Assembly: GCA_045863295.1 (NCBI GenBank)
Contig: BTWA01000006.1
Location: 32,001 to 96,000, forward strand
Direction of reading: 5' to 3'
From: Candidatus Hydrogenedentota bacterium
GTDB lineage: Bacteria > Hydrogenedentota > Hydrogenedentia > Hydrogenedentales > SLHB01
Length of the DNA stretch: 64,000 bases
The position numbers and the translations under genes were made by a program. The notes beneath the pieces are model-generated. The model saw only the letters and a program-made list of their open reading frames with translations. It searched no databases and was not told the DNA's origin. Shown here one piece after another: positions 616 through 18,840 of this stretch (within the stretch, counting starts at the first letter, position 1; each line of letters starts with the position of its first letter).

Positions 616-908
616 ATGCCCTTGTTGAAAGCCAATTGGCCGAGTTAAGGAGTGCCGTCCAGGCGTTGGAAGAATTTGCCGAGGAGCGGGGGACTACGAT
701 TTCGAAGCTCGAAGAAGAGCGCGATGCATTGCAGCAGGAACAATGGCGCCTGAAGAAGAATCTAACCACCTTGGAGCGCAAATCCAAGCGTTTGGAAGCC
801 CTCGAGGCTCAGAACGGCCGCATGAAAGAGCTGATCGCCGATCTCAGGGAGCGGCTTCACGCTACCCTTAAGGATATCAAGGCCTTGCGGTCAGGCATCG
901 CGTCGTGA
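612..908 (+). CDS. Coiled-coil protein, ZapB-like
   Basis: 98 aa, heptad-rich and all-helical; ATGA overlap with pheT; lies between pheT and zapA. Confidence 0.6.
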   Translation: MNALVESQLAELRSAVQALEEFAEERGTTISKLEEERDALQQEQWRLKKNLTTLERKSKRLEALEAQNGRMKELIADLRERLHATLKDIKALRSGIAS

Positions 909-1198
909 GCAACGAATATGTCAACGTTACCATTGCCGGAATGACTTTCGAGGTGCCCGTTTATGAATCGCCCCAACGTACGCGCGAACTGGCGCGGGAT
1001 GTGGAAGCGCGGTTCCGGAGAATCGAGGCGGCCCATAAGAAGGTCAACACTCAGATGTTCGCGCTCCAGACAGCCATGTCGTACGCCGTTGACTTGGCGA
1101 GTGCTAGAACTGATAACCACGATCAGGACAAGGAAATGGTGAAGGCCTTATCCGAAATCGTTACCCGCCTGAGAACCCGCGCTCGCACCGAAGAGTAG
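905..1198 (+). CDS. zapA: Cell division protein ZapA
   Basis: N-terminal VNVTIAGMTFEV strand, then ARDVEARFRRI and ALQTAMSYA helices; pheT-zapA synteny. Confidence 0.8.
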   Translation: MSNEYVNVTIAGMTFEVPVYESPQRTRELARDVEARFRRIEAAHKKVNTQMFALQTAMSYAVDLASARTDNHDQDKEMVKALSEIVTRLRTRARTEE

Positions 1199-1202
1199 GG
1201 GG

Positions 1203-1384
1203 AAGTCTTTCAGCCGAGCCCGGCTGTCTACAGGTTCTACTTTCCGAGGCCTGCGGTTTTGAACCGATGTGTGCCGACAGGGCGTTCCTAACCAGATCAA
1301 AATGCTCACTACAGAGGGCGGTACCGCATAGCAACCAGGACAAGGCCGACTGCAATTCCTCGAATGTGCGGCAGGGGCAGGCTT
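1203..1384 (+). ncRNA. ssrS: 6S RNA (SsrS), approximate boundaries
   Basis: Directly downstream of zapA, the typical position; about 180 nt; ends pair (AAGTCT/AGGCTT), inner stem CGAGG..TGCGGTT with GACTGCA..CCTCG, central bubble, TTGAACC motif. Confidence 0.7.
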
Positions 1385-1850
1385 AGGCGACGGCGATTCT
1401 GATACCGGTTTTGGCGATGAAGCATGTAAAAATAATGTCCGATAATATATATTATGTGCCAAAATGCGATTCTGATTCGGGTCACTTGCTGGAGCTGGCG
1501 TCATATTCTAACCTGAGGCGTTGTCTGTGAGCACATAGTGTATCTCCTTTTTCCGCTTAGGGTTGGCATGATTAGGAGACACCTTGGGCTTCATTGAGCG
1601 ATGTGGTTTTCAGTGGTTTCGGATTCAAGCGGGAAAGCGCGGGTCTCCCAGCGCACCTGAAAGTTGGGTCTTTATGGCAGACCCCGGATTGGGCAGATCT
1701 CTACCCGCACGGGTGCCACTCTGATTTGTTGAGGATTGATCCGTGGTAGCCTCAAAACATGGATCCACCGGTCGGTCTGGGAGCAAACCAGATGACGTGG
1801 AGTTGGCGCGCGGTTGGACTGCGACGCAAGGTTTATTCGGAGGTGAAAAA

Positions 1851-1926
1851 TGGAGCGGGATACGGGATTCGAACCCGCGACTTTCAGCTTGGGAAGCTGA
1901 CACTCTACCAGCTGAGTTAATCCCGC
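1851..1926 (-). tRNA. tRNA-Gly (anticodon CCC)
   Basis: Reverse complement GCGGGATTAACTCAGCTGGTAGAGTGTCAGCTTCCCAAGCTGAAAGTCGCGGGTTCGAATCCCGTATCCCGCTCCA: cloverleaf, GTTCGAATC T-loop, encoded CCA. Confidence 0.97.
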
Positions 1927-2501
1927 TCAGTGTGGCTCGTGAGTCTATCACTCGGCCTAGGGCCTGTCAACCTACTCCATACCCTGTGTGTTCGGTGCGG
2001 GCGTTTCTCGAGGGTTTCAGGTGGAGTTTTATTCTTGTCAATGGTCGCTTGGCCGGAATTTCCCCCTCCCCATTCTGTAAAGTATACTTACTTACTTGAA
2101 AGTGCTGGAAACGTTGGACACAGGTGGAAACGAAGTCCCTCCGGGGCTATTCTGGATATCAGCATAGCTCATTAAACTCCTATCAGAACCGCTGATTTTT
2201 ACACTAGGGCCGAAGGTGAATCTCTACGGCAAGGATTTGCTTGTGATGGTCAAGATATACTGAGACGATTGGTCCTCCCTGTTGATTGCTCACCCTTTCC
2301 AACCGTGCGTACTGGTTTACGATAGACTCGTCAAGGAATTACCGCTCATAAATACTAGAGATTGGGGTTTTTCATGTGTCTTGTGTAGCCTAATGGAACA
2401 GGCCGGACACTCAATTCGCGCCAATATGGCCCAGATTCAACGAGTATGTTATTTATTACCTCAGATAGCCAATACTGGGGTCATTTAGCAATCTCGGAAA
2501 A

Positions 2502-4721
2502 TTGTATTTTTGTGCGTTTCTTGCACTCATGTGTGTTTTTATCTGGAGCATGATTCAAGGTGCTGTATTGACGGGATCATTCCAAGGGCGTACTCTTGAT
2601 GCAAATCGCGGAGTCCACCACCCCGATCAGGACGCGTGTATGATGCCGGAAGACATTCAGGATAATCCGAGTGAGAGCACTTCGTGTTCTTTTAAAAGAA
2701 GGTGCCGCGCTTTAATCAGTGCCTTATTGTCTGTGATGATCCTGACCCGAGTAAGCAGTTCCGTTTTTTTCGGTACATTCCTGATCGCGTATGCAGCACC
2801 CCCGGTTGGCGAGCCTGGTTTCTTCATCAACCCTGCCCCAGCACCCTCCCCGGGGACCGTGGTGTTGCAAACCACGCGATTTCATCCTGGAGAGGTCCAT
2901 GTACTTTCTTGGAAAATGAAGGTCGATGGTGCTAAGACATGGCGATTTCGTTCGCCATTTGCCGGTGTTTCAATTGAGTACTTCGATGTTTCTGGTGTTC
3001 CTATTGCGTCTCAAAGCAGGCATACCCACTGTTATTCGACGGTTTCGGAGCAGGATGCCTGGTGTGTGCTGGATGTTCCCTCCTCGGCAGACCGTTTGGA
3101 GGTGACATTTCGAATTGAGTCGGATGAGACACTTCCTGGCCATTTCTGGGTTGGACAGTTCCGGCTTGAGCCATTGGAATCTGCGAACAAGCCGGACGTC
3201 CACAGCAGCAAAGCGCTCTTGACGCTCTCCCCTGTGCTTGCGGATGGAACGCCCACACCGGCCCGCCTCTATCTCAAGGATTCCTATGGACTTCCGGCCG
3301 ATGTGCCGTTTACATTTGAATTCGACGGGGGGAAACTGGGTTTTCACCTGTCCTCTCTTCATTTAAACCGCTTCGCGGTTTTGCCGGGGACTTATGAAGT
3401 TGTTGCCATGAAAGGGTTTGAATACAAGCCTGTTCGTACGACAGTGACGCTGGAGGCGGGCGAGTCAAAGAACGTTGAACTCATTCTCGAACCTGCCTTT
3501 GATGCATCGTATCGGAATTGGTATTCCGGGGATCATCACACTCATCTATTCCGCCACGCCAGCACTGTACATCCGTTCATGAACATCGATGATGTCTACC
3601 GGATTGCGCAGGGTGAAGGACTGGCCTTTGTGCCATTCATGGGTGCGGATCGGGTTTCTGAGCCATTGAAAGTCCGTTCGGAACCTGGTTTTCTCGGCTG
3701 GGCCACCAACGAATTGACCCGGGATCTATGGGGTCACATCTGCCCCATAGGATTTGACGTGCCGGCACTGCCTGAATATGGCAACTTATGGCCGATGAAC
3801 GTCGACTACATGGCTGCGGCCGAATCGGCTGGTGGCGCGATTGCCTATGCCCATCCCTATGCCCGATTCAATCCGGAGTCCATAGCTTCTGCGGTCTCCG
3901 ATCCGGAATCCGGCCATGCGGCCCGGGAACTGCCGTTGGCGGCGGCCCTTGGCCACCGGTTCACCATCGACATGCTGACCAAGGAAGGGTTTGGGTCGAA
4001 TTTTGGAATGAAACTGCGGGACTATTTCCGGTTGCTGAACCTGGGGTTTCAACTTGGCGTATCCGGTTCCACGGATTTTCATGCGGACCAGGGCCGGGGA
4101 ATCATTGGTGCCATGCGTACGTATGTTCACGCCGATCCGTTTACGTGGCCGGCCGTTGCCCAAGCCTACCGGGAAGGCCGGACCTTTGCCACGAACGGTC
4201 CCCTGTTGTTTCTGTCGGCCGGGGCGTTTCAACCGGGAGACACGGTAACCCTGGAGGCGGAAGGCGAATTGACCGTCGCGGTGGAGGCATTCAGCCATTG
4301 GGGCCTGACCGGAGCGACCCTTTGGTACAACGGCCGTGCCGTGGAAACCTGGCGGGCTCAAGGCGATTTGGCATTACTTCGCGAGCATACGTTTAAAGTT
4401 TCCCATTCCGGATGGGTAGTGCTGAGTGCGACCGGGCCGGCACATGACGAATTGACCCACGCGCCGGAAGGTGTGCCGACGGTGGATGGGCAGTTTGCAA
4501 TCACGAGTCCCCTTTATGTCACGGTTGTCGGCCGCCCTGCCCCCGCGGATCCTGAGGCGGCCCGTTATTTCATGGCGTGGGTGGATAACGCGAAGACGGC
4601 CTTTGAAACGGCCTGCGCTTCTTCGGCCGCGAAGGGCAATCCTCTCCCCGAGGCGATCCGGGATCAGGCGCTGGCCCGGTTTGCGGAGGCGCGGTCTGTG
4701 TATTTTCGCCTGTCGGACTAG
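2502..4721 (+). CDS. CehA/McbA-family (PHP-like) metallohydrolase with N-terminal beta-sandwich domains; true start probably near 2640-2740
   Basis: WYSGDHHTH, AYAHP, GSTDFH, GRTFATNGP and AITSPLYV motifs. Confidence 0.8.
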   Translation: MYFCAFLALMCVFIWSMIQGAVLTGSFQGRTLDANRGVHHPDQDACMMPEDIQDNPSESTSCSFKRRCRALISALLSVMILTRVSSSVFFGTFLIAYAAPPVGEPGFFINPAPAPSPGTVVLQTTRFHPGEVHVLSWKMKVDGAKTWRFRSPFAGVSIEYFDVSGVPIASQSRHTHCYSTVSEQDAWCVLDVPSSADRLEVTFRIESDETLPGHFWVGQFRLEPLESANKPDVHSSKALLTLSPVLADGTPTPARLYLKDSYGLPADVPFTFEFDGGKLGFHLSSLHLNRFAVLPGTYEVVAMKGFEYKPVRTTVTLEAGESKNVELILEPAFDASYRNWYSGDHHTHLFRHASTVHPFMNIDDVYRIAQGEGLAFVPFMGADRVSEPLKVRSEPGFLGWATNELTRDLWGHICPIGFDVPALPEYGNLWPMNVDYMAAAESAGGAIAYAHPYARFNPESIASAVSDPESGHAARELPLAAALGHRFTIDMLTKEGFGSNFGMKLRDYFRLLNLGFQLGVSGSTDFHADQGRGIIGAMRTYVHADPFTWPAVAQAYREGRTFATNGPLLFLSAGAFQPGDTVTLEAEGELTVAVEAFSHWGLTGATLWYNGRAVETWRAQGDLALLREHTFKVSHSGWVVLSATGPAHDELTHAPEGVPTVDGQFAITSPLYVTVVGRPAPADPEAARYFMAWVDNAKTAFETACASSAAKGNPLPEAIRDQALARFAEARSVYFRLSD

Positions 4722-4824
4722 GGCGGCGATGCCCCCCCACTTCATTCCGCAGCCGCCCCGCAGGGTGATACCATGCACCATTCGGTCTGGGTATCTCTTA
4801 CAACTCTTACGCGGAGGGTCAGTC

Positions 4825-6645
4825 ATGCGCTGCCGAGCGTACACCTTGGTTCTGCTTGTTGCCTTGCTGTTTTCCAGTTTGGTCAAGGCGCAATCGCAGC
4901 CCTCTGGTCCAGGTACGGTGGAAGGGGTGGTGTACGGACGCGATGCCTCCCTCCCGCTGCCGCGAACACTGGTATTTTCAGTGAGTCCCGACAAGATCCT
5001 GGCCAATGCCGAAGCGTGGAAAGCGCAGGGCGTCGGCGGGTTCTTTCTGGAGGGTGTGGCCAGCGAGTGGTCCAGCGATGTGTGGGCGACCGACAAGAAG
5101 CCACACACGATCGGCGCGAGCGACGAAACGTTTCAGAAGGTGCGGGAAGTAAACGCCCTGTGCAAGCGGCTCGGCATGGTGACTTATCTGAAGATTGTCT
5201 ATGCGAATCCGTTGGAGTGGTTTAACGACACGGCGTGGCAACACATCAACCACCACTTCCGGCAGTTCGCGATCTTTGCGCGCGCCGCGGGTTGCCGCGG
5301 GGTTGCACTTGATATCGAGTATGTGGGCCAACAATTCGCGTTTGACTGGGAGGGCTATACGTATGATGGGTATACGCGGAAGGATCTGATCCGGACCATT
5401 CGCGAGCGGTCCGCCGGACAACTTCGGGCGATGTACGACGAGTTTCCAGAAATGGAGTTCCTCGTGCTGCCCGAAGGCGGCATTCATCTGGGGACTCACA
5501 TACAGACGTCGTGGATCGAAGTGGCGGCGGAACGTGACGCGCCCGGGGGCGTACACTTCTTCATGGAAGCCACGTATACGTCGTCGCACCTCGACCGCTA
5601 TCTCGCGTACACCAGCGCGACGAATCTTCTGTTTCGCCGTCAGTTGAGCGAACGTGGGCGGGAGTACTGGGCGCGGCGGTGCACGCTTGCCGCGGGCACC
5701 TGGCCGACCGGATTCGACATTGGGGCGAATCATGACTCTTCCCTCACCCCGACGGAACTGCGCCAAAGTTTCGCTGGTGCGCTGATGGTGTCGCCGAAGT
5801 TCAATTGGGTTTACGTCGACCGGTACGGTGAGCACCACGTGGGCAACGTTCCCGAAGACTATGAAGGCAAGACCGATTTTGCGATGGTGGCGGAGGTGTT
5901 GGGCAACCGCGAAATCGTGCTCGATGATCGCTACAAACGAATTGCCCTTGCCTTGCGCGGCCTCCCTCCCACCGATCCGGCCGCGGATCTGGGGATCGCG
6001 GCCGTGCCCCGGTTCATGCTGCCGCATGGCACGCCCACAATCGACCTCGTGCCTTCGACGTCGGTCGGCGCGGCGGAAACGGAACACGCATGGGACATTG
6101 CGATGGCGTACTACGAGGGGGAATCGCAGGATCTGCAGGCGATTTTTCAACCGATCCGGGATTGGCGTCTCATCGGACCGTTTCCAAGCGGCGACGGGCT
6201 TACGGGGCACGATGCCGTGTACGGGCCGGAAAAGGAAATTGATTTAACGGCGGCGTACGAGGGTGCGAACGGATCGGTGGCGTGGCAGCCGTTCCGCCTT
6301 GCGGACGGCGCACTGGGCATTGATTTCAAACCCATGTTCACACCGAACGAAAACGCGGTGGCGTATGCGTTGACGTATGTGGAGTCGCCGGTGGAACAAG
6401 CCGTGCAAATCCGCTTCGCGTCGAACGACGCAGGCAAGTTGTGGGTGGGCGGCAAACTGGTCAACGATTTTAATCGGGAAAGTTGGTCGGTGTTGGATCG
6501 CGACATCGTCGAGGTGACGCTGCCCAAGGGCAAGACGCCGGTTTTATGCAAGGTGACGAACGGGATCGGCGCGTGGACGTTGGTGGTGCGAATCACGGAC
6601 AAGGACGGCGAGCCGGTGAAAGGGTTGGTGTTCAGTGGGGAATGA
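4825..6645 (+). CDS. Secreted hypothetical protein, possible glycoside-hydrolase-like barrel plus C-terminal beta-sandwich (PA14-like)
   Basis: GGAGG RBS before ATG 4825; signal peptide MRCRAYTLVLLVALLFSSLVKAQ; GVALDIEY; C-terminal WRLIGPF...AVAYA...SNDAGKLWVGGKLV...LCKV. Confidence 0.7.
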   Translation: MRCRAYTLVLLVALLFSSLVKAQSQPSGPGTVEGVVYGRDASLPLPRTLVFSVSPDKILANAEAWKAQGVGGFFLEGVASEWSSDVWATDKKPHTIGASDETFQKVREVNALCKRLGMVTYLKIVYANPLEWFNDTAWQHINHHFRQFAIFARAAGCRGVALDIEYVGQQFAFDWEGYTYDGYTRKDLIRTIRERSAGQLRAMYDEFPEMEFLVLPEGGIHLGTHIQTSWIEVAAERDAPGGVHFFMEATYTSSHLDRYLAYTSATNLLFRRQLSERGREYWARRCTLAAGTWPTGFDIGANHDSSLTPTELRQSFAGALMVSPKFNWVYVDRYGEHHVGNVPEDYEGKTDFAMVAEVLGNREIVLDDRYKRIALALRGLPPTDPAADLGIAAVPRFMLPHGTPTIDLVPSTSVGAAETEHAWDIAMAYYEGESQDLQAIFQPIRDWRLIGPFPSGDGLTGHDAVYGPEKEIDLTAAYEGANGSVAWQPFRLADGALGIDFKPMFTPNENAVAYALTYVESPVEQAVQIRFASNDAGKLWVGGKLVNDFNRESWSVLDRDIVEVTLPKGKTPVLCKVTNGIGAWTLVVRITDKDGEPVKGLVFSGE

Positions 6646-6760
6646 AAGAATGTGAATCTCGCGCGGAGGCGCAGAGAGGTGGCCGGGTGGATCGCCGGCG
6701 TGTGTAGAAACCTGCCGCTGCAGCCTTTGACCTTGCTGTGGTTTGGGGAGAATCTCCGCT
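6615..6760 (+). repeat. 146-bp direct repeat, copy A (left flank of the Cas9 locus)
   Basis: Ungapped alignment to 13491-13636, 128/146 identical by manual count; contains the last 10 codons of the upstream gene and most of a CRISPR repeat. Confidence 0.9.
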
Positions 6761-6808
6761 CAGGTTTACTCTGATCGATAATCATCTTATGCCCGGCATC
6801 GCTGTGGT
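6735..6808 (+). CRISPR. Orphan mini-array: near-consensus type II repeat, 30-bp spacer, truncated repeat
   Basis: 6735-6770 GCTGTGGTTTGGGGAGAATCTCCGCTCAGGTTTACT (34/36 to array repeat); exactly 30 nt later GCTGTGGT at 6801. Confidence 0.75.
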
Positions 6809-6945
6809 GTTCACTGATTTCGTATCCCATGTTGACTCGTCAATGTCCCCTATAGTCTGGCTTTTCTGTTGCATTTTCTTAGCGGATTGAAACAAGGGTA
6901 TATGATGGATTTGCGCTGTTTGCGCATTGTTCTTACTTCAAATTT

Positions 6946-6974
6946 TGGTTCATCCTCGCGTGTGTGGGGAATGT
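6946..6974. repeat. Degenerate type I-E-like CRISPR repeat (relic)
   Basis: TGGTTCATCCTCGCGTGTGTGGGGAATGT resembles CGGTTCATCCCCGC..GCGGGGAACAC repeats; a second copy lies at 7482. Confidence 0.6.
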
Positions 6975-7040
6975 TACTCGCCCGTCCCGTGGTAGACCAC
7001 CAGCGGTTCTCCGTTTTCATCCACCACATTCGAATCATCG
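6974..7040 (-). pseudogene. Fragment resembling the phage polyvalent-protein ADP-ribosyltransferase domain N-terminus
   Basis: Translates to SNVVDENGEPLVVYHGTGE-stop. Confidence 0.5.
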
Positions 7041-7438
7041 TCTGGATTGACAGAAAAAAATGGTGTGAAGTATCTGGGGATCGAGTCCAAGGGAACGCCG
7101 CAAGTTCCGTTGGCGACAGCGGCCCCGGTCTTGAGCGCCGCCGTCCGCACCTGGCGCCACTGCCCTGAATTCGGCCTCGACGGCTTTCCAGCCGGAGCCA
7201 GCAACTGTCCATGCTCCCCTCGGCCACCGAGAACACCGGCCATTGCGCATCTGGCCCGTCAGTGGTATCCTGTTTTTGGAATGGCGCTTGCCAAGATCCC
7301 GGAATCGTTGAGGCAGGTGTCGCCGGGTTGGGGTTCTCCGGGGTTCGCCCAATGCCTTCCCTTTCCCACACAATCCTCATGTTGGCCTGCCGTCCGGCGC
7401 TCAGGTACGGAAAATGCGTCCTTAACTTGCCGCTCACC

Positions 7439-7503
7439 AATGAAGGAATGTGAATTTCGCGCAGAGGCGCGGGGAGGTGGCCGGTTCATCCCCGCGTGTG
7501 TGG
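7439..7503 (+). repeat. Partial third copy of the flanking direct repeat
   Basis: AATGAAGGAATGTGAATTTCGCGCAGAGGCGCGGGGAGGTGGCCGG aligns with the sequence starting at 6641 and near 13517. Confidence 0.8.
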
Positions 7504-7510
7504 GGTTATG
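7482..7510. repeat. Degenerate type I-E-like CRISPR repeat (relic)
   Basis: CGGTTCATCCCCGCGTGTGTGGGGTTATG. Confidence 0.6.
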
Positions 7511-7526
7511 GTACATCATTGAAGTT

Positions 7527-7565
7527 CAGACCACAGGCCACGCCTTAGGCGTGGCCTGTGGTCTG
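7527..7565 (+). promoter_or_regulatory. Perfect 18-bp hairpin sequestering the 5' part of the first CRISPR repeat
   Basis: CAGACCACAGGCCACGCC-TTA-GGCGTGGCCTGTGGTCTG; right arm overlaps repeat 1 at 7555-7565. Confidence 0.75.
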
Positions 7566-8052
7566 GGGAGAATCTCCGCTCAGGTATACTCTCACCGGAC
7601 ATCGACCCAAGCTCGGATAGGCTGTGGTCTGGGGAGAATCTCCGCTCAGGTATACTTCGCGGAATCCGGGGTGAATGACGAATGTGGCTGTGGTCTGGGG
7701 AGAATCTCCGCTCAGGTATACTTAGTGCTCTACGTAGCTTTATCTGGTCTGGGCTGTGGTCTGGGGAGAATCTCCGCTCAGGTATACTCAGGTCCATGCC
7801 GACGATCTCCGCTGGGCGGCTGTGGTCTGGGGAGAATCTCCGCTCAGGTATACTACTTCCGTTCGGCAACGTCTGCACAGTCTCGCTGTGGTCTGGGGAG
7901 AATCTCCGCTCAGGTATACTCGCCGCCCCCGAGGAACGTCGCGCGAGGCGGCTGTGGTCTGGGGAGAATCTCCGCTCAGGTATACTTGCGCAGGCACTTG
8001 GCAATATAGAGGCGACGCTGTGGTCTGGGGAGAATCTCCGCTCAGGTATACT
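7555..8052 (+). CRISPR. Type II-C CRISPR array, 8 repeats of 36 bp and 7 spacers of 30 bp
   Basis: Repeat GCTGTGGTCTGGGGAGAATCTCCGCTCAGGTATACT at 7555 (first base C), 7621, 7687, 7753, 7819, 7885, 7951 and 8017; + orientation inferred from tracrRNA complementarity and the 3' TATACT -10 box. Confidence 0.98.
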
Positions 8053-8056
8053 TAGG

Positions 8057-8085
8057 CCCCGCGTAACCGTAAGCGTTACGCGGGG
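8057..8085 (+). terminator. Hairpin after the last repeat (probable pre-crRNA terminator)
   Basis: CCCCGCGTAAC-N7-GTTACGCGGGG, 11-bp stem; short U tail. Confidence 0.6.
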
Positions 8086-8196
8086 TTACTGAGTCATTTA
8101 ATGGAATTTTTGCCCCTAAATCTGTTAGAGTGCGGCTGTTAGGCCTTCGAAATAAATCGTATATGGAGACACGTGATGTCATATCGTCTGGCACTT

Positions 8197-8239
8197 AAAA
8201 TGATCCGTCCGCCAATTAAACAGAAATTGGCGGACGGAT
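8197..8239 (-). terminator. Intrinsic terminator of the 53-aa gene
   Basis: 15-bp perfect stem ATCCGTCCGCCAATT/AATTGGCGGACGGAT, 9 nt past the stop; CATTTT tail on the minus strand. Confidence 0.75.
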
Positions 8240-8248
8240 GTTCCGGAA

Positions 8249-8410
8249 TTACTTCTGACAGTCTCCAGCGGTGTCCTTTGCCTTGCACTGATTGCATAGT
8301 TCTCCCGAAGTCGGCTTTGTGGAAGATTCCACATAGTTGGAAGTCGGCCATAAGGAACAGTTTTTGCAACAATGCCAGGCGTCCTTGTCCTTCTTTCTGC
8401 GGTATGGCAT
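8249..8410 (-). CDS. 53-aa Cys-rich small protein (putative Zn-binding), not in the ORF track
   Basis: MPYRRKKDKDAWHCCKNCSLWPTSNYVESSTKPTSGELCNQCKAKDTAGDCQK; GGAGGTG RBS 6 nt upstream; own promoter and terminator. Confidence 0.8.
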   Translation of the reverse strand: MPYRRKKDKDAWHCCKNCSLWPTSNYVESSTKPTSGELCNQCKAKDTAGDCQK

Positions 8411-8470
8411 ACGTGTCACCTCCCTTCACGCAAAATTCTCTATATAATTGGCCTTAACCTAGATGCCATT

Positions 8471-8499
8471 ATATTATCAGGGCCAAGTGAGAAAGTCAA
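8471..8499 (-). promoter_or_regulatory. Sigma70-type promoter of the 53-aa gene
   Basis: Minus strand TTGACT-N17-TAATAT with an extended -10 TG. Confidence 0.65.
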
Positions 8500-8516
8500 T
8501 CTATTCGAATGCAGCA

Positions 8517-8582
8517 TGTTTGATGTCGTCTTTATGGCCTTAACCTGCTGTGGTTTGGCTTGACGCTCTGCTCAGGTGTACT
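8517..8582 (+). ncRNA. Putative crRNA-like regulatory RNA (scaRNA-like): pseudo-spacer plus solitary degenerate repeat 8547-8582
   Basis: GCTGTGGTTTGGCTTGACGCTCTGCTCAGGTGTACT is 28/36 identical to the array repeat; preceding 12 nt TGGCCTTAACCT are identical to 8449-8460. Confidence 0.6.
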
Positions 8583-8638
8583 GCAAAGCGCGTGCATATC
8601 TCAGTTCGAGATTGCACGCGTTTTTGCTCGCGCAGAAA

Positions 8639-8983
8639 TCAAAAAAACTGCATCTGCTCCGGAGGTTCTTCTGCAACGCGCCGCTTTTTCCCGATAAAGA
8701 TTTCCATTTTTGCGAACTGCTTGTCGGTGACCGCCAACAGTCTAACATGCCCTTCGGGAGGCAGGGCCAACCTCACCCGTTTTCGATGGACTTTGGCCGC
8801 CTCTTCGGACGGGCAGTATCGCGCATAGACCGAGAACTGCATCATTTGAAACCCGTCCTTCAGCAATTCGTTTCGGAACTGCGCGTACTTTCTTCGGGCA
8901 TCTTTGGTGGTGACGGGTAGATCAAAGAGGGCGAACAGCCACATGCCTTTGTATCCCGAGACTTCGAATCGTTGTTGGGTCAT
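8639..8983 (-). CDS. cas2: CRISPR-associated endonuclease Cas2 (type II)
   Basis: MWLFALFDLPV...FRNELLKDGFQMMQFSVYAR...LPPEGHVRLLAVTDKQF. Confidence 0.97.
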   Translation of the reverse strand: MTQQRFEVSGYKGMWLFALFDLPVTTKDARRKYAQFRNELLKDGFQMMQFSVYARYCPSEEAAKVHRKRVRLALPPEGHVRLLAVTDKQFAKMEIFIGKKRRVAEEPPEQMQFF

Positions 8984-9200
8984 GGGAACCCATATTCAGT
9001 TTCGGTCACCTGCCTAAATCTAGCCATCTGCTGCACCGCAGGGCGACCCAACTTTTTGTGCAGGAGTAAGGTTCACCCTCTCCCAAGCCACTGTTTGGGA
9101 GTGAGCCAAGTCGGATTAGCACAGCATCTGTGCCATGTCGAGTATTCCTTCTGGCGTTGATTCGTGTCTCGCTCAAAGTTGAATTGGACGGTGAACCACG

Positions 9201-10091
9201 TCAGAGTTCTGGCAGAATCAGCGTCCTTCTCTTTCCAAGGTAAACTTTTGCCAAGGACGATGCCGTGCGATTCAATATGTCAAAGAGGGTTCTTTCTTCG
9301 CCTTTGATCGTAAAGCGCTGGATGAGCGCGGCCACAATGACACGTTTGGCTTCGGTGTCGAGTTGCTGTTCCATTCCTTCCCTGCTTTGAACCAATTCGA
9401 CCACGGCTTTGTCGACAAGCGGTCGAAACGGTTCCATGAGATCCGAGGCGAGCGGAAAATTGTCGTAACGATTATGGTGGTGTAACCCAAGTCCCGGGTG
9501 CAGTCCCGCCGCGCAAATGGCGCGTCCAGTGGTGGCGCGGAGAACGCCGTAGCCGTAATTGAGATAATTATTTTCGACTCCTGCTTCCGCTCCGCGTCTA
9601 AATTCGCGGTTGCCGAAGAGTTTTTTCCAGTAGCGTACCGCCGCTTGAGCTTCCTGGTTATCTGGATCGCCGGAACGGACACGGGGAACCAAGGCTGTAA
9701 GGCCTGCGTCGTCACCGTGCATCGCAAGTAGTAGTCGAGACTGAGCACCTATTTTGGCGCGCACTAATTGCCGCCATAGTCTTTTTCGAACGGAAAGTCC
9801 TGACTCTGCCTGTTTGGAAAAGCGTTCAGACTGCAAATGGTGGCTCTGCAAAGGCAATAATATTCCGACTGGCGAGTGCCGACCATCGCACACAATACAG
9901 GATGAACCCTTGGCCATCAGACCGGCCAGTACTGCACCCGTAATTGTTATATGCGGATGGCCGAGCACTAATACACCTACTTCATCCAACGGCGCTTGGG
10001 AGGTAAGCGATTGTTGTTCGACTATCAACTGATCGTTGTGTACCTTGACCTTACCTGACGCGTTGGCAATGTCAATTATTCGATTAGTCAT
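9201..10091 (-). CDS. cas1: CRISPR-associated endonuclease Cas1 (type II)
   Basis: SGDPDNQEAQAA, NNYLNYGYGVLRA, GLHHHN and LASDLMEPFRPLVD motifs. Confidence 0.97.
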   Translation of the reverse strand: MTNRIIDIANASGKVKVHNDQLIVEQQSLTSQAPLDEVGVLVLGHPHITITGAVLAGLMAKGSSCIVCDGRHSPVGILLPLQSHHLQSERFSKQAESGLSVRKRLWRQLVRAKIGAQSRLLLAMHGDDAGLTALVPRVRSGDPDNQEAQAAVRYWKKLFGNREFRRGAEAGVENNYLNYGYGVLRATTGRAICAAGLHPGLGLHHHNRYDNFPLASDLMEPFRPLVDKAVVELVQSREGMEQQLDTEAKRVIVAALIQRFTIKGEERTLFDILNRTASSLAKVYLGKRRTLILPEL

Positions 10092-13000
10092 TGGAGTGTC
10101 GAAGCGCTCCTAACGGCGAAACTGAAAGTTTGCGCGATGAGCGTCGTCTAAGCGCGTTCAGGCGAGGCATCTCCCAGCCTCCTGAAGAAATTATCTCCTT
10201 TTTCAGTCTAGCGTCAACGAGCCCAGCAAGGCTGACACGATCCTTCGAAATCCCTCTCACTAATGCCAAAGTAGTGGAACCATCTTCCATATTCATTTGC
10301 AGCACGTCTCCAATCGCCAAGCTCATGACAAACCGCCTTCCCTCGCCGTGATCTCGCTGAACGATGGGCTGCTTGTTTCGAAGCCGCTGCAGAGCCGTGT
10401 ATTGATCGACAATGATGTCTTCCCACTTGGGTTCGCCTTTTTTGTCGAGCACCTCGATGATTTCCATGTGATGGTTTGACGCGGGCACGACGTGGCGGTT
10501 GCGACCGGTTTGTCCAATCTGAAATGTTGAGGCACGTTTCCGGATTCTCACGCGTTTGATAGGGACCGAGCCGCCGGCTTTCCGAGAAAGTTTGGGTAAG
10601 TTGTCTTTGTCTGCGAATGCTTTCTTGGTGTCGTCTGTTCCCAACTCGAGCAACTTCTGCTTTACGGCGTCATATACAGCGCGGTCGACAATGGCCTCGA
10701 CCTCATTCGCGCTGATACCGTCGATGGGCTTACGGACATGCACGCAAGGTTTGCCTTCTTCATCGACGTATATTTTGCTGTACAGCGTTTCCTCATGGAG
10801 GGGTCCGCTAACGCGTCGTGAGACTCGATGGGACACGATCATGGAGGCAATGGCGGTCTGGACATCCTGCAGAAATGTATTCCATGGGATTTCCATTTTC
10901 TTCCACCATCGGCGCATTTGCTCGTCGCCGCCTTTTTTCGCGGCGTCGCTCAATTGTTTGAGTGTTCGCGTATCGGTGAGTGCGATGGCGATGGCATCAA
11001 TCGCGTGGTGGCGGTGGTCGTCGCGCGACTTCCGGGGGCCGTCCGAGAGAATGCGGTTTAGATTCCATGCGTTGCGCAAGATGGCAGTGACCTCTCCCCT
11101 GCCCGGTTGAACGCGCTTCTTCCCGGCTGCGTCGACGATTCCGCCATAGAGCAAGCCCAGAAACCGGGAGGCGATAGTGGACACGTAGCGAGTATCGCTA
11201 AGTTGGCGGTTGGTGAACGAGTCGAGGCTTTCAAGGGACTTCATTTTGAAGCGGCGCAGTTTGGCTTCGCGCGCGTCGCCTTGAAAACGTCCTACGCGGG
11301 TGATGATAGCGTCCCACTCTGGAGACTCTCCGTAGGCCTCCCATGGAGTTTTGTTACGCTTTCTGTTGCGGTTCTCCTCGTGATAACAGAGGGTCTTGTT
11401 CATAAACGAGTCATCAAGGCATCGTGCAAAAGGGAGTATGTGCTCTACATCGAACTGTGATTGCTCTCCGATGAGATTATTGATGCCGATGGATTTGCCG
11501 GTGTAGGGGCATTCCCACCCGCATTCCTCGGCCAGGAGGATGCGTTCGATATCCTCTCGGCTTGGATGGGGGTTGCCGGTTTTCTTATGGATTTGTGCGG
11601 CGGCGGCCTCGCGTTGTTTTTGGCGTTGGCGGTTCTTCTTCCAGGCTTCTTCCCGTTTTTTTCGGGGCTTTTTCATATCGCGCGCGAGTTCGATCCTGAT
11701 TAAATCGGGTTTTCCATGTTCGCGAATGATGGCGTTGACCACTTTGCGCAATTCGGTAAGGGTGCGTTGCACCATGGGGTTGCGAAGGACAATTCCTGAG
11801 TCTTCAAGCATAGGAAGCGCGGTCAAGGGGCGATCCTCGAATCGTTGTGAGCCGTATTCATTCTTGATCGCGGTCTGGAGGAATTCCCCTTGTTCCAATC
11901 TTGGGACGAGCTTAGCGAGTGCTTGCCGGGAAAACCGGCTGTAGCCGGGTTCCAATCGGATTTGGGCCAGATCCTCAGCGGTGTCCGAGTCGAGCTTCCA
12001 GCGTTTGATGCCGCGAGATTTCAATGTTTCCTGTTTGACCGTGCTCAAGATCTCTTCCACGAGTTCGTTTTGTTCCCGGGGTGGCATTTGCAGCCAGCGT
12101 TCGCCGAGAATGGCGTGCAGTTTTGCGGCCGTTCGGTTGCCGGGCAGCTTTTCCTCGCCCCCGGCCTCCAGATTAAATTTGGTGGTCTTCTTGAGCTTCA
12201 AAAGCGTTCGAATAGCGGAGAATTTGGCGTCTCCTTGAAAACTCAACTTTGAAATGATGGCCTCGCGCTGTTCCGCCGTGAGTGGAATCGTCTCGCCGTC
12301 TTCCAGAATGCAAAGATCGTTGATTCGCTGCAGCATGCGAATTTTTTGCGAATCCAGAATGGCGATAGGGGCTCTCTTTCGTCCGAGTTCCAATTCACAT
12401 TGACCGATGAGATTTTTTTGCGATTTCAAAGGCCGTTGGCGAAAGATGCATCGATATATCTCTTGTTTTGCAGCCTCGGATAACAAATCGGGATGGTGTG
12501 CCATCTGCGCATTCCAGATGGCATCAAATTCGGCTTTGTACATGGCACGAGAGGTCCAACGGCTGCGGATTCGGGATTCGTGTGGATTCAGTCCCGCGAA
12601 GTATTCACCCAGCGTTCTCGCGCGGGCCTCGTTCATCATGGTTTGGAGCTGAGAGATTCCTTCCTTGACCTGTCCTTCTTCTTCATCGTCCTTGGCCGTT
12701 GATTTCCGATTGGTCTCAAACCCGCGGCGGTGCCCCAAGTGATAAATGGCGCGGCCAAGGGCGTGGGCTTTAAGAGGATGGTCTAAAGCGCGTGCGCGGA
12801 GGAAGTAGGGCAGTTGATCGAGCAGGTTTGAGTCGATGCCTATCGATTTATACGAATCGTAGAGTTGGGCATCTAGCGTCTTGAAAAATTGATGCCTGGC
12901 CATATGATCGCGGATATCGCCTGACGGGAGCAGACCCATACGTTGCAGCGCGGCGGCAGTCTTGGCCATTCGGCGTCTGCGACGGTCGGCCTGCTTGCGT

Positions 13001-13209
13001 TGTTGCCGTGCCTCGCGGCGTTTGGCGTTTCGTGATTCGTCTTTGCCTTGTTCAATGTCCTGTGCTGTGCCGTCAACGCCGGGATCAAAGACTCGGGCGC
13101 CAGAGCGTATCAGCCGAGTGGGTTTTCCGGCTGCGTACTCGATTAGTGCCCAACCGACTGAGTTTGTGCCCAGATCAAGCCCAAGCACCATTTCGTTGTT
13201 TGTGCCCAT
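10084..13209 (-). CDS. cas9: Type II-C Cas9 endonuclease, 1041 aa
   Basis: RuvC-I LGLDLGTNSVGWA; Arg-rich bridge helix; RuvC-II IRIELARD; HNH CPYTG...DVEHILP...DDSFMNK; RuvC-III HHAIDA; no csn2 or cas4 in the locus. Confidence 0.98.
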   Translation of the reverse strand: MGTNNEMVLGLDLGTNSVGWALIEYAAGKPTRLIRSGARVFDPGVDGTAQDIEQGKDESRNAKRREARQQRKQADRRRRRMAKTAAALQRMGLLPSGDIRDHMARHQFFKTLDAQLYDSYKSIGIDSNLLDQLPYFLRARALDHPLKAHALGRAIYHLGHRRGFETNRKSTAKDDEEEGQVKEGISQLQTMMNEARARTLGEYFAGLNPHESRIRSRWTSRAMYKAEFDAIWNAQMAHHPDLLSEAAKQEIYRCIFRQRPLKSQKNLIGQCELELGRKRAPIAILDSQKIRMLQRINDLCILEDGETIPLTAEQREAIISKLSFQGDAKFSAIRTLLKLKKTTKFNLEAGGEEKLPGNRTAAKLHAILGERWLQMPPREQNELVEEILSTVKQETLKSRGIKRWKLDSDTAEDLAQIRLEPGYSRFSRQALAKLVPRLEQGEFLQTAIKNEYGSQRFEDRPLTALPMLEDSGIVLRNPMVQRTLTELRKVVNAIIREHGKPDLIRIELARDMKKPRKKREEAWKKNRQRQKQREAAAAQIHKKTGNPHPSREDIERILLAEECGWECPYTGKSIGINNLIGEQSQFDVEHILPFARCLDDSFMNKTLCYHEENRNRKRNKTPWEAYGESPEWDAIITRVGRFQGDAREAKLRRFKMKSLESLDSFTNRQLSDTRYVSTIASRFLGLLYGGIVDAAGKKRVQPGRGEVTAILRNAWNLNRILSDGPRKSRDDHRHHAIDAIAIALTDTRTLKQLSDAAKKGGDEQMRRWWKKMEIPWNTFLQDVQTAIASMIVSHRVSRRVSGPLHEETLYSKIYVDEEGKPCVHVRKPIDGISANEVEAIVDRAVYDAVKQKLLELGTDDTKKAFADKDNLPKLSRKAGGSVPIKRVRIRKRASTFQIGQTGRNRHVVPASNHHMEIIEVLDKKGEPKWEDIIVDQYTALQRLRNKQPIVQRDHGEGRRFVMSLAIGDVLQMNMEDGSTTLALVRGISKDRVSLAGLVDARLKKEIISSGGWEMPRLNALRRRSSRKLSVSPLGALRHSND

Positions 13210-13228
13210 GGTACGGTCTGCTCCCCGC

Positions 13229-13256
13229 TTGACAATCCACTCTGGTTATGTATAAT
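13229..13256 (+). promoter_or_regulatory. tracrRNA promoter
   Basis: TTGACA-N16-TATAAT, 7 nt before the anti-repeat. Confidence 0.8.
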
Positions 13257-13262
13257 AGGGGT

Positions 13263-13373
13263 CAGTATACCTGAGCGGAGATTGTCCTCCAAATCACAGT
13301 AAGGACTTTCAAGTCCGCGGGCAACGTCCTACGGGACGTCCATTGCGCCTCCCTGTTGGGGCGCTTTTTTTTT
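13263..13373 (+). ncRNA. tracrRNA
   Basis: Anti-repeat 13264-13300, whose first 20 nt are the perfect reverse complement of repeat nt 17-36; then AAGG and nexus GGACTTTCAAGTCC, hairpin ACGTCCTACGGGACGT, GC hairpin and T9 terminator. Confidence 0.92.
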
Positions 13374-13490
13374 GTTGGGGAGCGTGGGTTGGCAAGGGAT
13401 TGGGTTTTGGGTCCAGTGTGTCTTTTGGGCTGCATGGGTGTTTAGAGACTTCGCGTGGGCAACTTGTGAGATTCATGTCTACTTGCAAGG

Positions 13491-13646
13491 GGTGAAAGGG
13501 TTGGCGTTCAGTGGGGACTGAAGGAACGTGAATCTCGGGCAGAGGCGCAGGGATGTGGCCCGGTGGATCGCCGGCGTGTGCAGAATTCTGCGGCTGCACC
13601 GTTTGACCCTGTTGTGGTCTGGGGAGAATCTCCGCTTACATACACG
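13491..13646 (+). repeat. Direct repeat copy B (right flank) ending in a solitary degenerate type II repeat (13611-13646, 30/36)
   Basis: Aligns with 6615-6760; GTTGTGGTCTGGGGAGAATCTCCGCTTACATACACG. Confidence 0.9.
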
Positions 13647-13817
13647 GGGAAAGTGTGCGGTGAGCCGTTTTCTTGAACAGTAACCGTTCTGGTCGCGTTT
13701 GGTGTCATGGTCTGAAGTCATGCCACACCCCTTGGGAAATCAACGCACGGCATAGAGCCCTTGGCGGAATGCTCAGACTGCATTTGCTAGCCGCGTGCTG
13801 CGTCTTTGTTTGAGTGG

Positions 13818-14213
13818 CTATTTCTTCTGTGCGAATTTCGCGCTGCGTTCGGCGACGAGTTGGTTGATGGTTTCGTCTGCGGGGCGGATTTCGAAGGGTC
13901 CGACTTTTACGCCGGGGTGTTTGGACATGAGTTCGATGGCGTGGTTCATGTCGCGGGCTTCGAGCAGGAGGATGCCGCCGAGGACTTCCTTGGTTTCGGA
14001 GAAGGGTCCGTCGGTGATTTTAATTTCGCCGTTTTTGTTGCTTAGCGTGACGGCTTTGTTGGCGAAATCGAGTGCTTCGCCGCCGAGGAAGTGTCCTCCG
14101 CGCCGCAGTTCGTCGTCGTAGGCAAAGCATTCTTCCATCATTTTTTGCGCGTCTTCGGGGGGCATGTTGGCGAAGGCGTCTTCGTTGTAGTATCCGAGGC
14201 ATACGAATTTCAT
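13818..14213 (-). CDS. YciI-family (DGPFAETKE-type) protein
   Basis: [15 protein letters not shown] motif. Confidence 0.9.
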
Positions 14214-14358
14214 GGGGGCACCTCTTCGATTGTCGGGTTTCTTGGGCGCTGAGCGTCCCTGGTTGCCGTGCTTATTTGCTCATTAGTCGAACGGGCGGGG
14301 CCGAGATCGACACGGCAGAGCCGTTTTGTTTGTGGCGGCTGTTTTGTGCACGGCGTCG

Positions 14359-15348
14359 TTATCCCAGCCACTCGGGGTGGTAGGCGGTGGCGTCGTAGGC
14401 CGGGGTGGTTTTGAATCGTTCAAACTTGCCTGATTTTGCGAATTGAACGGTGCGGCTGAGGAGCGCGGCGGTTTCGGTTTCGGTCATAGGTTTGAAGTTG
14501 CGCACGGTTTCGAGGTTCTGTTCGAAGTGGGCCATGGTCTGCATGCCGGAAATGACGACGGAGGTGGGCAGGGTCATGGCGTAGTGCAGGCATTCTTGAA
14601 CGGTGACGGCATTGGTTTCGAGGGCGACTCCGCCCGCGACGGATTTCATGCCGAGCACGCCTATCCCCCGCTCCACCAACACGGGGAGGACGCCGTCGCG
14701 GAAACTCCGGAAGTGGGCATCGAGCACGTTGAGGGGCATTTGCACGGTGTCAAAAGTGAAGCCGTTGGCATCGGCGACTTCAATCATGCGGAGGTGCACG
14801 GCGGGGTCTTTATGTCCGGTGAATCCGATGTACCGGATCTTCCCTGCTTCCTTCGCGGCGTAGAGGGCTTCCATGGCGCCGCCTTCGGCGAAGATTCGGT
14901 CGCCGTCGTCCATGCGGATCATTTCGTGGTGTTGCAGGAGATCGATGCGATCGGTCTGGAGGCGTCTGAGGCAATCATTGAGTTGGGATTCGGCGGAGGC
15001 CTTGGTGCGGCCGTCGATCTTGGTCATGAGGAATACCTTGTCGCGCAGGGGACCTTTGAGGGCTTTGCCCATGCGTTCTTCACTGCCGCCGGCGTGGTAG
15101 TCCCAGGAGTTGTCCATGAAGTTGATGCCCGCGTCGATGGCGGCGTGGATGATACTGATGCCTTCGGCTTCATCGGGCACGCCGATGTGGTAGCCGCCGA
15201 GGCCGAGGAGCGAGACGCGTTCGCCGGTGCGGCCGAGGATGCGGTATTTCATTTCGCCTTCGGCGCCTTCGGTCTGCGGTACGGCCATGGCGTGACTGAT
15301 GGTTATTCCTGTGGCGGCCGTGGCGGCCAGGAATTCGCGGCGATTCAT
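14359..15348 (-). CDS. Aldo/keto reductase with Tat signal
   Basis: MNRREFL twin-arginine; YRILGRTG, GINFMDNSWDY, LQTDRIDLLQHH and GKIRYIGFTGH motifs. Confidence 0.92.
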   Translation of the reverse strand: MNRREFLAATAATGITISHAMAVPQTEGAEGEMKYRILGRTGERVSLLGLGGYHIGVPDEAEGISIIHAAIDAGINFMDNSWDYHAGGSEERMGKALKGPLRDKVFLMTKIDGRTKASAESQLNDCLRRLQTDRIDLLQHHEMIRMDDGDRIFAEGGAMEALYAAKEAGKIRYIGFTGHKDPAVHLRMIEVADANGFTFDTVQMPLNVLDAHFRSFRDGVLPVLVERGIGVLGMKSVAGGVALETNAVTVQECLHYAMTLPTSVVISGMQTMAHFEQNLETVRNFKPMTETETAALLSRTVQFAKSGKFERFKTTPAYDATAYHPEWLG

Positions 15349-15612
15349 GGGATGTGTCCTCCTGAAGTCGAGGTATCGCGGTTCAGCGGCAGTGTATCAC
15401 AGAGAGGCGATGCCGCCGGTACGGAGTTCTCGGCGTCTTTCGCTTCATTACGTTTTCGTAATCCTTTCGGGAGTCTGCTCTTCACGTTCGTAGTGTCCAA
15501 TGGTGATGTGGCCGGAAGTATGGGGCCGGGCATTCCTGGTAGTACGAGTCGTGAAAGGAGTCTAGCCGCGCGCATTCGGGGTTGAGTGGTGCGCGCCGGG
15601 AAGGGAGGCGTT

Positions 15613-17346: not shown

Positions 17347-17360
17347 GTAGTGAAAATCGA

Positions 17361-17397
17361 AAGACCCCGTGCTGCCCGAGTGGCGGCACGGGGTCTT
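17361..17397. terminator. Hairpin between convergent genes (likely bidirectional terminator)
   Basis: AAGACCCCGTGCTGCC...GGCGGCACGGGGTCTT. Confidence 0.75.
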
Positions 17398-17418
17398 CAT
17401 TAATTCAAATTGTTGCGG

Positions 17419-17781: not shown

Positions 17782-17958
17782 ACGCGGCCGCGGACCGCAG
17801 CCTGGAACCCCTGGGACCCTCCCGGCCTTCCCCTGTGGGGAAACGCCGTCCTTATCTTACCTCAGAATTGGGTGTATGTTGCACATTTGCCTTTGGCTTC
17901 TGAGATTGGCGATGACGGGACCGAAGCGTTTCGCCGGGAACGTATGATCTATAAAGAG

Positions 17959-18708: not shown

Positions 18709-18840
18709 TCCCGGATACAGCTTCTATCGGTATTGTTTCATTTTTTATTGATTTTGTCAAAACGCAAATACCGATAACTGCTAATTCGGGAGGATGTAAT
18801 CGGTTCTGATTCCAGACCTACGTCCAGAAATGGAACGAAT

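Follow-up and report, generated by a model that had tools for sequence, protein, structure and literature searches.

A solitary CRISPR repeat with a 12-nt match to the start site of a neighbouring small gene: a candidate Cas9 guide in a type II-C locus of a Hydrogenedentota bacterium

The window analysed here is a stretch of 64,000 nucleotides from Candidatus Hydrogenedentota bacterium, an organism from sludge with an assembly of 6,335,068 bases. It contains genes for CRISPR-associated (Cas) proteins and a CRISPR array (short palindromic repeats, clustered and regularly interspaced). The cas9, cas1 and cas2 genes, a trans-activating CRISPR RNA (tracrRNA) with an anti-repeat and an array of repeats that pair with it make this a type II-C locus (Table 1). 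Between the array and cas2 lie a gene for a 53-aa protein with four cysteines (Cys4) and a solitary repeat-like unit, and the 12 nt directly 5' of this unit recur exactly at the predicted transcription start of the small gene. We describe this arrangement and tentatively interpret the unit, together with the preceding 12 nt, as a regulatory guide for Cas9, an interpretation to which we assign a probability of about 0.4.

The solitary repeat, the 12-nt match and the small gene

The solitary unit lies 494 nt past the last array repeat on the cas2 side, at a distance of 4.7 kb from the tracrRNA, which is transcribed from the plus strand and divergently from cas9. With 56 nt to the cas2 stop codon, the unit is close to the slot that the first array repeat occupies in related loci. 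Its bases 1-12 and 24-36 are the ends that are conserved in the repeat family, and these are kept, while the middle has diverged. The changes are concentrated at positions 13-19, a part that is variable between lineages too, and the changes at positions 23 and 32 are transitions that preserve wobble pairs. Cofolding of the unit with the 5' part of the tracrRNA yields -46.6 kcal/mol, compared to -55.3 for the array repeat and -18.6 +/- 2.5 for 200 shuffled versions of the unit (minimum -31.0). The tracrRNA segment CCAAATCACAGT at 13289-13300 pairs fully with bases 1-12 of the unit, two G:U pairs included. Because the cofold energy is far below that of the shuffles and the 12-bp lower stem is fully paired, the unit has the capacity for tracrRNA pairing that a guide of the type of the small CRISPR-associated RNA (scaRNA) requires, and it could still serve as scaffold of a CRISPR RNA (crRNA). 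Position 9 is a C in all eight array repeats and stands opposite an A in the anti-repeat (C.A mismatch); in the solitary unit, in a stray unit at 6735 and in the repeats of most relatives it is a T, which pairs. It seems that the array repeat has drifted away from its own tracrRNA. A degenerate terminal repeat of the array was considered and ruled out, since the unit is not at spacer distance and lies on the side of cas2, whereas such a repeat would stand at the end opposite to spacer uptake. In three relatives (L010, L014 and L015) the decayed repeats are found at the cas-distal end of the array.

The 12-mer preceding the unit occurs only twice on either strand of the whole assembly, and the two copies are 86 nt apart. 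Identity stops on both sides: upstream 2 of 18 bases agree and downstream none of 8. Thus, a short candidate guide of 12 nt stands beside a repeat and has a unique, exactly matching putative target at +5 to +16 of the promoter of the 53-aa gene, which is the configuration of scaRNA-type guides. With its plus-strand sequence, the guide would have the non-template strand of the small gene as pairing partner. The side on which a protospacer-adjacent motif (PAM) is expected, 8461-8468, is turned towards the promoter and includes the predicted start. Judged by these positions, the geometry would fit an interference of Cas9 with transcription. The solitary degenerate repeat (28 of 36 positions, in crRNA orientation, between array and cas2), the full pairing of its bases 1-12 to the anti-repeat end with G:U pairs, the exact recurrence of the 12-mer with its abrupt end of identity, the minus-strand promoter, the position of the target downstream of the start and the overlapping plus-strand promoter had all been pointed out in an earlier reading of the DNA from its letters alone (the sequence-only reading). 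All of them were borne out, the repeat by repeat comparison and its pairing by the cofold.

How often such a match arises by chance depends on the null that is applied. The naive expectation for a given 12-mer in 1 kb of double-stranded DNA is ~1e-4, the figure that the sequence-only reading had given, and as a naive figure it holds. Empirically, the rate is higher: in contigs C1-C10 of the same genome, a same-strand match of at least 12 nt that ends at a named position and has its copy within 500 nt was found at 1203 of 2,519,998 positions (4.8e-4). Most of the counted cases are tandem repeats and arrays, and 4.8e-4 is the rate at one named position, not allowing for the number of windows screened. 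Elsewhere, the matches of the nucleotides preceding a repeat are short. For the eight array repeats and three other stray units (6735, the 6801 stump and 13611), these suffix matches reach 6-8 nt within positions 1-20000 of the window. For the spacers of ten related loci (12-17 kb, both strands), they are mostly 6-9 nt among the matches listed, the exceptions there being one of 12 (9 kb away), one of 11 and one duplicated spacer. Because of the empirical rate and the short suffix matches elsewhere, chance is a poor explanation for a match in seed position only 86 nt away, and by these counts the match appears non-random.

The putative target belongs to a gene that, judged by its homologs, is real and conserved. 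A word-based search recovered 13 homologs of 46-55 aa with 60-76% identity, and 19 columns of the family alignment are invariant, among them W12, H13, C18, WPTS 21-24, KPT 32-34, GELC 36-39 and C42. The gene is preceded by promoter and ribosome binding site (RBS) motifs and followed by a terminator-like hairpin. A promoter scan found three promoter-like sites, compared to 1.2 +/- 1.1 in shuffled sequence.

Table 1. Features of the type II-C locus and of the region between array and cas2 (positions within the window)
Feature	Position	Strand	Basis or remark
CRISPR array	7555-8052	+	8 repeats x 36 nt, 7 spacers x 30 nt; read towards cas2
Leader-type hairpin, right after last array repeat	8053-8090	+	alignment to the repeat-to-cas2 spacer of related locus L159
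Terminator-like hairpin after small gene	8203-8239 (8239->8203)	-	motif
Gene for 53-aa Cys4 protein (P0002), with stop codon	8249-8410 (codons 8410->8252, stop 8249-8251)	-	open reading frame (ORF), homologs
RBS GGGAGGTG, 8 nt before ATG, strong	8417-8424	-	motif
Candidate guide promoter TTGGCC-N16-TATATT (TTGGCC 8448 / TATATT 8475); -35 overlaps target	8448-8477	+	9/12, motif only
Putative target (protospacer-like)	8449-8460	+	+5 to +16 of the small gene's predicted start
Putative PAM-side flank of target AGATGCCA	8461-8468	+	sequence
Small-gene promoter TTGACT-N17-TAATAT with TG (extended -10)	8499->8471	-	9/12 motif
Candidate guide/seed, 12 nt TGGCCTTAACCT, directly 5' of the unit	8535-8546	+	exact copy of 8449-8460
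Solitary repeat-like unit GCTGTGGTTTGGCTTGACGCTCTGCTCAGGTGTACT	8547-8582	+ (crRNA orientation)	8/36 mismatches to array repeat
Strong hairpin and U5, predicted terminator for a plus-strand transcript through the unit	8583-8627	+	whole 151-nt fold z = -3.8; hairpin in minimum free energy structure
cas2	8639-8983	-	Pfam CRISPR_Cas2 7.9e-17
cas1	9201-10091	-	Pfam Cas_Cas1 2.1e-26
cas9, 1041 aa, type II-C size and architecture	10084-13209	-	Pfam HNH_4, RuvC_III, Cas9_a
tracrRNA	13264-13374	+	promoter TTGACA 13229 / TATAAT 13251; anti-repeat 13264-13300; terminator with T-run 13366-13374

A possible Cas9 guide and competing explanations

The interpretation that we favour tentatively is that the solitary unit and the 12 nt before it form a crRNA-like regulatory guide, similar to scaRNA or to crRNA-like RNA (crlRNA), which would park the Cas9:tracrRNA complex on the start site of the small gene. 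Transcription of the guide on the plus strand would begin at the weak promoter at 8448-8477 or would read through from the last array repeat, and its transcript would end at the terminator at 8583-8627. Its repeat part would pair with the tracrRNA by a lower stem of 12 bp and a distal stem of 17 bp and be loaded onto Cas9. Directed by the 12-nt seed, Cas9 would bind at 8449-8460 without cutting, that is at the transcription start and in the 5' untranslated region (UTR) of the 53-aa gene. With the PAM side towards the promoter, the gene would be held off as long as Cas9, tracrRNA and guide are present. This would require that the guide is expressed, that this Cas9 accepts AGATGCCA as PAM, that 12 nt are enough for it and that its binding leads to repression.

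Several observations weigh against a functional guide. The sequence-only reading had suggested to determine the PAM from spacer matches, and such matches were looked for. Matches of the spacers in the own genome were at chance level, those in GenBank phages and plasmids all had E values of at least 0.5, and spacer-range matches in 135 genomes of the phylum had per-genome E values of ~0.005 or higher; the exact 3' 22 nt of six of the seven spacers (all but spacer 6) had no match in IMG/VR. As none of the spacers led to a credible protospacer, a PAM against which to compare AGATGCCA could not be derived. Taking over the PAM of a relative was rejected: the best relatives of this Cas9 are at most 53% identical, and the closest solved chains, Cas9 entries of 1082-1092 aa, align over residues 7-747 only, so that the PAM-interacting part does not align to solved Cas9 proteins. 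The candidate guide promoter is weak evidence, as far as motifs can tell, because it shares an AT-rich palindrome with the opposite promoter. A search for RNA sequencing runs that contain 7400-9000 found none. The interpretation is furthermore tied to a single locus, and this locus is visibly rearranged, with three stray repeat units, two leader-type hairpins and a bracketing direct repeat, so that relic units are to be expected here.

Comparison with related loci belongs to the same side of the balance. We compared 39 related II-C loci, of which 10 are Cas9-related and have arrays and 29 are cas2 loci from the same phylum, the flank being readable in 28; none has a degenerate unit or an inserted gene near cas2. 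In all ten Cas9-related loci the cas2-proximal repeat is perfect and adjoins the array, and decayed repeats are found at the far end. In the 28 phylum loci the gap from the last repeat to the cas2 stop is 48-52 nt in 24, 58 nt in two, and 100 and 166 nt in the remaining two. Likewise, in the 119 loci compared for the small-gene family, 795 kb in total, there is no II-C repeat-like unit, no copy of the 12-mer and no cas9, cas1 or cas2 like those of the window, and the 5' regions of the family loci are not conserved; the pair of gene and unit does therefore not travel as a module. Co-variation of guide and target, which had been proposed as a check for other II-C loci, beside homologous small ORFs, is hence not borne out, 0 of 39 and 0 of 119 loci showing the arrangement. 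For the region 8053-8640, none of 40 related genomes from the same family and order gave a match. The comparative evidence is absent rather than negative, given that the closest Cas9 relatives are at most 53% identical. Contigs of four sequencing runs from four studies cover 8026-9300, 8077-8593, 8252-8565 and 8168-8382, each with 0 differences to the window; thus, the arrangement is stable, and for the same reason there is no co-variation to read. A form without the insertion was not seen among metagenome contigs over 6500-9300; two joints (8052->8813 and 7855->8802), which differ at 11-15 positions over 61-77 nt, stem from a divergent relative. One related locus, that of Planctomicrobium sp. 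SH661 (L008), has an extra solitary repeat with three mismatches (6892-6927 in reverse-complement coordinates) in a gap of ~965 nt between cas1 and cas9, and this repeat has no seed match longer than 7 nt within its locus.

The interpretation given in the sequence-only reading is partly supported, namely by the geometry, the non-random match, the terminator found after the unit and the real gene; conservation or co-variation and the toxin or addiction step, to which we return below, found no support.

A quite possible alternative is that the unit has no regulatory role and is left over from a rearrangement or from the insertion of a mobile element, be it as an orphaned repeat, as an att-like hybrid or as an imported repeat. 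The 12-mer would then be a truncated old spacer, a junction duplication or a chance match, and any RNA made from the region would lack a selected function; a truncated self-derived spacer, which we count here, would still imply a valid PAM. This explanation is in line with the scars at the locus, namely direct repeats of 146 nt and 23 nt, the array stump at 6735-6809 and the decayed unit at 13611-13646, and with the finding that the array has its own leader-type hairpin, whereas the hairpin beside the unit resembles none of the leaders of 27 relatives. It also agrees with the G+C content of 8100-8700, at 45-47% the lowest of the locus, and with the presence of the small-gene family in 38 viral contigs, near genes that we take to be terminase-, portal- and methylase-like. 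A further member of the family directly adjoins an unrelated array at a truncated repeat, as would be the case if arrays were landing sites of such cassettes, and the arrangement is not conserved in the 39 related loci. A rearranged history makes stray units common, yet it does not explain the seed match: an exact 12-mer that stops right where the repeat begins and is found again on the neighbour's start site (4.8e-4 per position) remains without a cause. Moreover, a longer former match has left no trace (upstream, 2 of 18 bases agree), the intervening 74 nt have no terminal inverted repeats and are not duplicated, and the family-conserved ends of the unit and its tracrRNA pairing are intact.

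It is quite improbable that the two 12-mers act without binding of Cas9 to DNA. In one variant, a plus-strand RNA containing UGGCCUUAACCU would act as antisense on the 5' UTR of the mRNA, possibly with Cas9 acting on RNA; in the other, the 12-mers would form an operator pair, 86 bp apart on either side of the promoter, for a DNA-binding protein, perhaps the 53-aa zinc protein itself. The target does lie within the predicted 5' UTR, so that the mRNA carries the complement, and the available part of a report on the type II-C scaRNA of Neisseria meningitidis describes an action on a 5' UTR at the RNA level (PMC13431127). Pairing of 12 nt alone is, however, weak for a small RNA, and the exact abutment of the 12-mer to the repeat becomes a coincidence. 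The structural model of the 53-aa protein weakly resembles the DNA-binding zinc domain of Ada, but these fold matches are below any significance threshold, and in the upstream regions (260 nt) of 92 homologs direct repeats of at least 12 nt are only of low complexity, closely spaced (12-22 nt apart), or CRISPR, so that operator pairs are no trait of the family. That the unit is instead a repeat mimic of a mobile element (a solitary repeat unit, Racr or viral guide), titrating or redirecting tracrRNA or Cas9 and left behind with the small gene, is very improbable: reports, in their accessible parts, describe solitary repeats carried by phages and guide RNAs of viruses that subvert CRISPR-Cas (PMC10651486; 10.64898/2026.06.01.729453; 10.1101/2024.10.29.618823), the neighbouring gene is phage-associated, and the T at position 9 and the middle unlike the host array would suit a separate origin, but the middle of the unit has 0 exact matches in IMG/VR, with up to 3 of 28 nt allowed to differ this middle part matches 1 of the 135 phylum genomes, its own, none of the 38 viral small-gene loci has a II-C repeat-like unit, and the unit sits 56 nt from the cas2 stop, near the first-repeat slot of relatives.

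Known regulators and the 53-aa protein family

The regulatory guide proposed here would extend a short list. To our knowledge, natural Cas9 guides that repress instead of cutting comprise few cases, scaRNA and the long tracrRNA form tracr-L. CRISPR-repressed toxin modules are known from type I systems. As far as the available parts of the literature go, the arrangement would share with the scaRNA of Francisella novicida (II-B) and the tracr-L of Streptococcus pyogenes (II-A) an RNA that derives from a repeat, lies outside the array and works with tracrRNA and Cas9, a complementarity of ~11 nt by a transcription start, repression without cutting, and an own promoter and terminator, which here are motifs only. 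For tracr-L, an 11-bp match is reported to suffice for Cas9 binding without cutting, and scaRNA to act near the start site (PMC10120712). The arrangement described here differs from both in its subtype, II-C, and in its target, a small phage-type cargo gene 86 nt away rather than a lipoprotein operon or a cas promoter. In tracr-L, guide and tracrRNA are furthermore part of one RNA, whereas the unit described here is separate from the tracrRNA.

Mini-arrays other than tracrRNA are reported for ~6% of type II loci in the part of the survey available to us (PMC10120712). Like the crlRNA or mini-array regulators (Shmakov et al. 2023; CreR; 'CRISIS'), as described in the accessible text, the unit is a standalone repeat-like sequence whose spacer partly matches a promoter within the CRISPR-cas locus. 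Those described in detail there are of type I and V-A, while the mini-arrays of type II were counted and their targets not analysed (PMC10120712). The scaRNA of N. meningitidis is, from what is accessible of that report, the closest in subtype: a II-C locus, an extra small RNA bound to Cas9 (putative here) and a host gene affected via its 5' UTR (PMC13431127). It is, in contrast, described as similar to a single guide RNA and as acting post-transcriptionally on the mRNA, while the geometry of seed, repeat and start site at our locus would suit binding to DNA (PMC13431127).

A further step had been taken in the sequence-only reading, which proposed an addiction module. In this form, the locus would be a Cas9-dependent counterpart of CreTA or CreP, in which a captured phage gene, harmful when expressed, is silenced by Cas9:tracrRNA and the mini-guide; we consider this unlikely. 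Similar to CreTA and CreP (types I-B and I-F), as far as the accessible descriptions reach, a degenerate repeat with a short partial spacer lies in a cas locus and is directed at the promoter of a small gene that lies next to it and is of phage descent. CreP, from a type I-F locus, is a phage-derived KilAC protein of 103 aa with a crRNA-like RNA as its repressor, according to the available part of its description (10.1101/2024.01.05.574328). The effector here would be Cas9 with tracrRNA and not Cascade, which makes the locus an analogue at most and not a member of that group. CreA usually has two flanking repeats, compared to the single unit found here, and unlike the toxin of CreTA the 53-aa protein has no toxin annotation. 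The role of the 53-aa protein as a toxin is the least supported step of all, and the addiction proposal found no support: the family is common where CRISPR-Cas is absent, is not annotated as toxin or defence in Pfam, PADLOC or PHROG, and looks like a small zinc-binding domain. In the accessible portions of the literature, leaving aside the supplementary type II mini-array lists of Shmakov et al., we came across no report of a type II locus that contains a cargo or toxin gene repressed by Cas9.

If the guide works, type II-C systems too would recruit degenerate repeats for gene control, the locus would provide a minimal natural circuit of CRISPR interference with 12 nt for study, and a widespread, unannotated phage-type zinc protein family would gain its first functional handle. 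If it does not, the locus still illustrates clearly how guide-like relics that mimic such circuits arise from rearranged arrays. Should even the addiction proposal be true, loss of cas9 or tracrRNA or inhibition of Cas9 by an anti-CRISPR would release the protein, making this the first type II addiction or anti-anti-CRISPR module, and the overlap of the guide promoter with its own target would build in a feedback.

The 53-aa protein itself belongs to a family that is seldom found in the phylum of the host (2 of 135 genomes, host included) and that pattern scans recovered 244 times in metagenome contigs (80 kept) and 38 times in viral contigs. Its remote homology was addressed by word-based search, family libraries and fold searches only. 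No match was obtained in Pfam or PADLOC, no homolog in GenBank phages and only unnamed clusters in a language-model atlas; a weak match to PHROG 2855 leads to a family with unannotated function. An AlphaFold (AF2) model built with the family alignment has a predicted local distance difference test score (pLDDT) of 90. Searching with this model by Foldseek gave nothing significant, the best rows in BFVD being viral 'Metal binding domain of Ada' proteins with a TMq of 0.58-0.64 and E values above 1, and in a search independent of Foldseek (VIA) the two best chains were N-Ada of Escherichia coli with Z 2.9 and 2.5. As a lead only, the model suggests a Cys4 zinc domain with weak resemblance to the zinc domain of Ada. 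A Cys-rich protein of ~67-214 aa, for which Pfam gave nothing convincing, adjoins the family gene in 13 of 42 long loci. A few family loci contain genes that we take, from their sequence by eye, to be terminase-like, portal-like or methylase genes.

In a further family locus, represented by the same sequence in two samples (L044 and L046), the family member (L046:5959-6156) starts 6 nt after the last repeat of an array of 81 units and is co-oriented with this array. The repeat is of an unrelated type, and this last copy is truncated (27 of 37 nt). Downstream follow housekeeping genes (thioredoxin-like, TPR, PAP2 and ApbE). This is a second, independent case of a family gene abutting an array among ~96 other non-redundant loci, which is more than we would expect by chance, although it is a single event.

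History of the locus and further observations

The hairpin at 8053-8090 was assigned as leader-type by local alignment to the repeat-to-cas2 spacer of a related locus (L159), with a score of 31 compared to a maximum of 28 in 200 shuffles. A first model, in which an insertion into a spacer had split the array, is weakened by this hairpin and by the T/C difference at position 9. Because the leader-type hairpin directly follows the last repeat, the solitary unit may not have been split off from this array, as far as such alignments can tell. Instead, a block of 8100-8638 with small gene, unit and terminator may have entered between a complete array with leader and cas2; alternatively, two related loci may have recombined. 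The low G+C content is the sole hint that suggests a foreign origin of 8100-8640. No remnant of a cas2 gene was found in 8040-8560.

The whole CRISPR-Cas locus is bracketed by a direct repeat of 146 nt, 88% identical between 6615-6760 and 13491-13636, with a partial third copy at 7439-7505. This repeat contains the last 31 nt of a 724-aa ORF that ends at 6645, and each copy runs into a repeat-like unit, a pattern that points to a tandem duplication or a mobile cassette, with deletions afterwards. The 23-nt direct repeat is located at 6947 and 7483. The stump at 6735-6809 is a mini-array: its near-perfect repeat, with 2 mismatches and a T at position 9, is followed by 30 nt of spacer and by another repeat that breaks off after 8-9 nt. 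The 3' end of this spacer has no match longer than 8 nt in positions 1-20000 of the window. The decayed repeat at 13611-13646, with 6 of 36 mismatches and in crRNA orientation, lies ~235 nt past the tracrRNA terminator. At 6837-6928 and 7277-7353 the summed depth of metagenome contigs is very high (up to 470), with many unrelated contigs that have 5-10 differences, as for the ends of a repeated element. No convincing Pfam families were found in the other ORFs tested at 6850-8563.

The orientation of the array, read towards cas2, is common to the 10 loci of Cas9 relatives with arrays and also to the 29 cas2 loci from genomes of the phylum, in which 38 of 135 genomes are cas2-positive. A perfect inverted repeat of 18 bp at 7527-7565 (CAGACCACAGGCCACGCC / GGCGTGGCCTGTGGTCTG) has as its right arm the start of the first, cas-distal array repeat; the one match obtained in Rfam, at chance level and below threshold (mir-2329, E 0.045), falls onto this inverted repeat. 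Two more type II-C loci are found in the same genome on other contigs (C27:39915-41743 and C24:79776-81553), with long arrays of different repeats that directly adjoin cas2, so that the organism has three Cas9 systems in total. Finally, tandem repeats of 27 nt at 15792-15980 lie within long ORFs that overlap 15586-17346, and, read by eye from the DNA, they presumably encode a nonapeptide rich in Pro, Asn, Gly and Thr.

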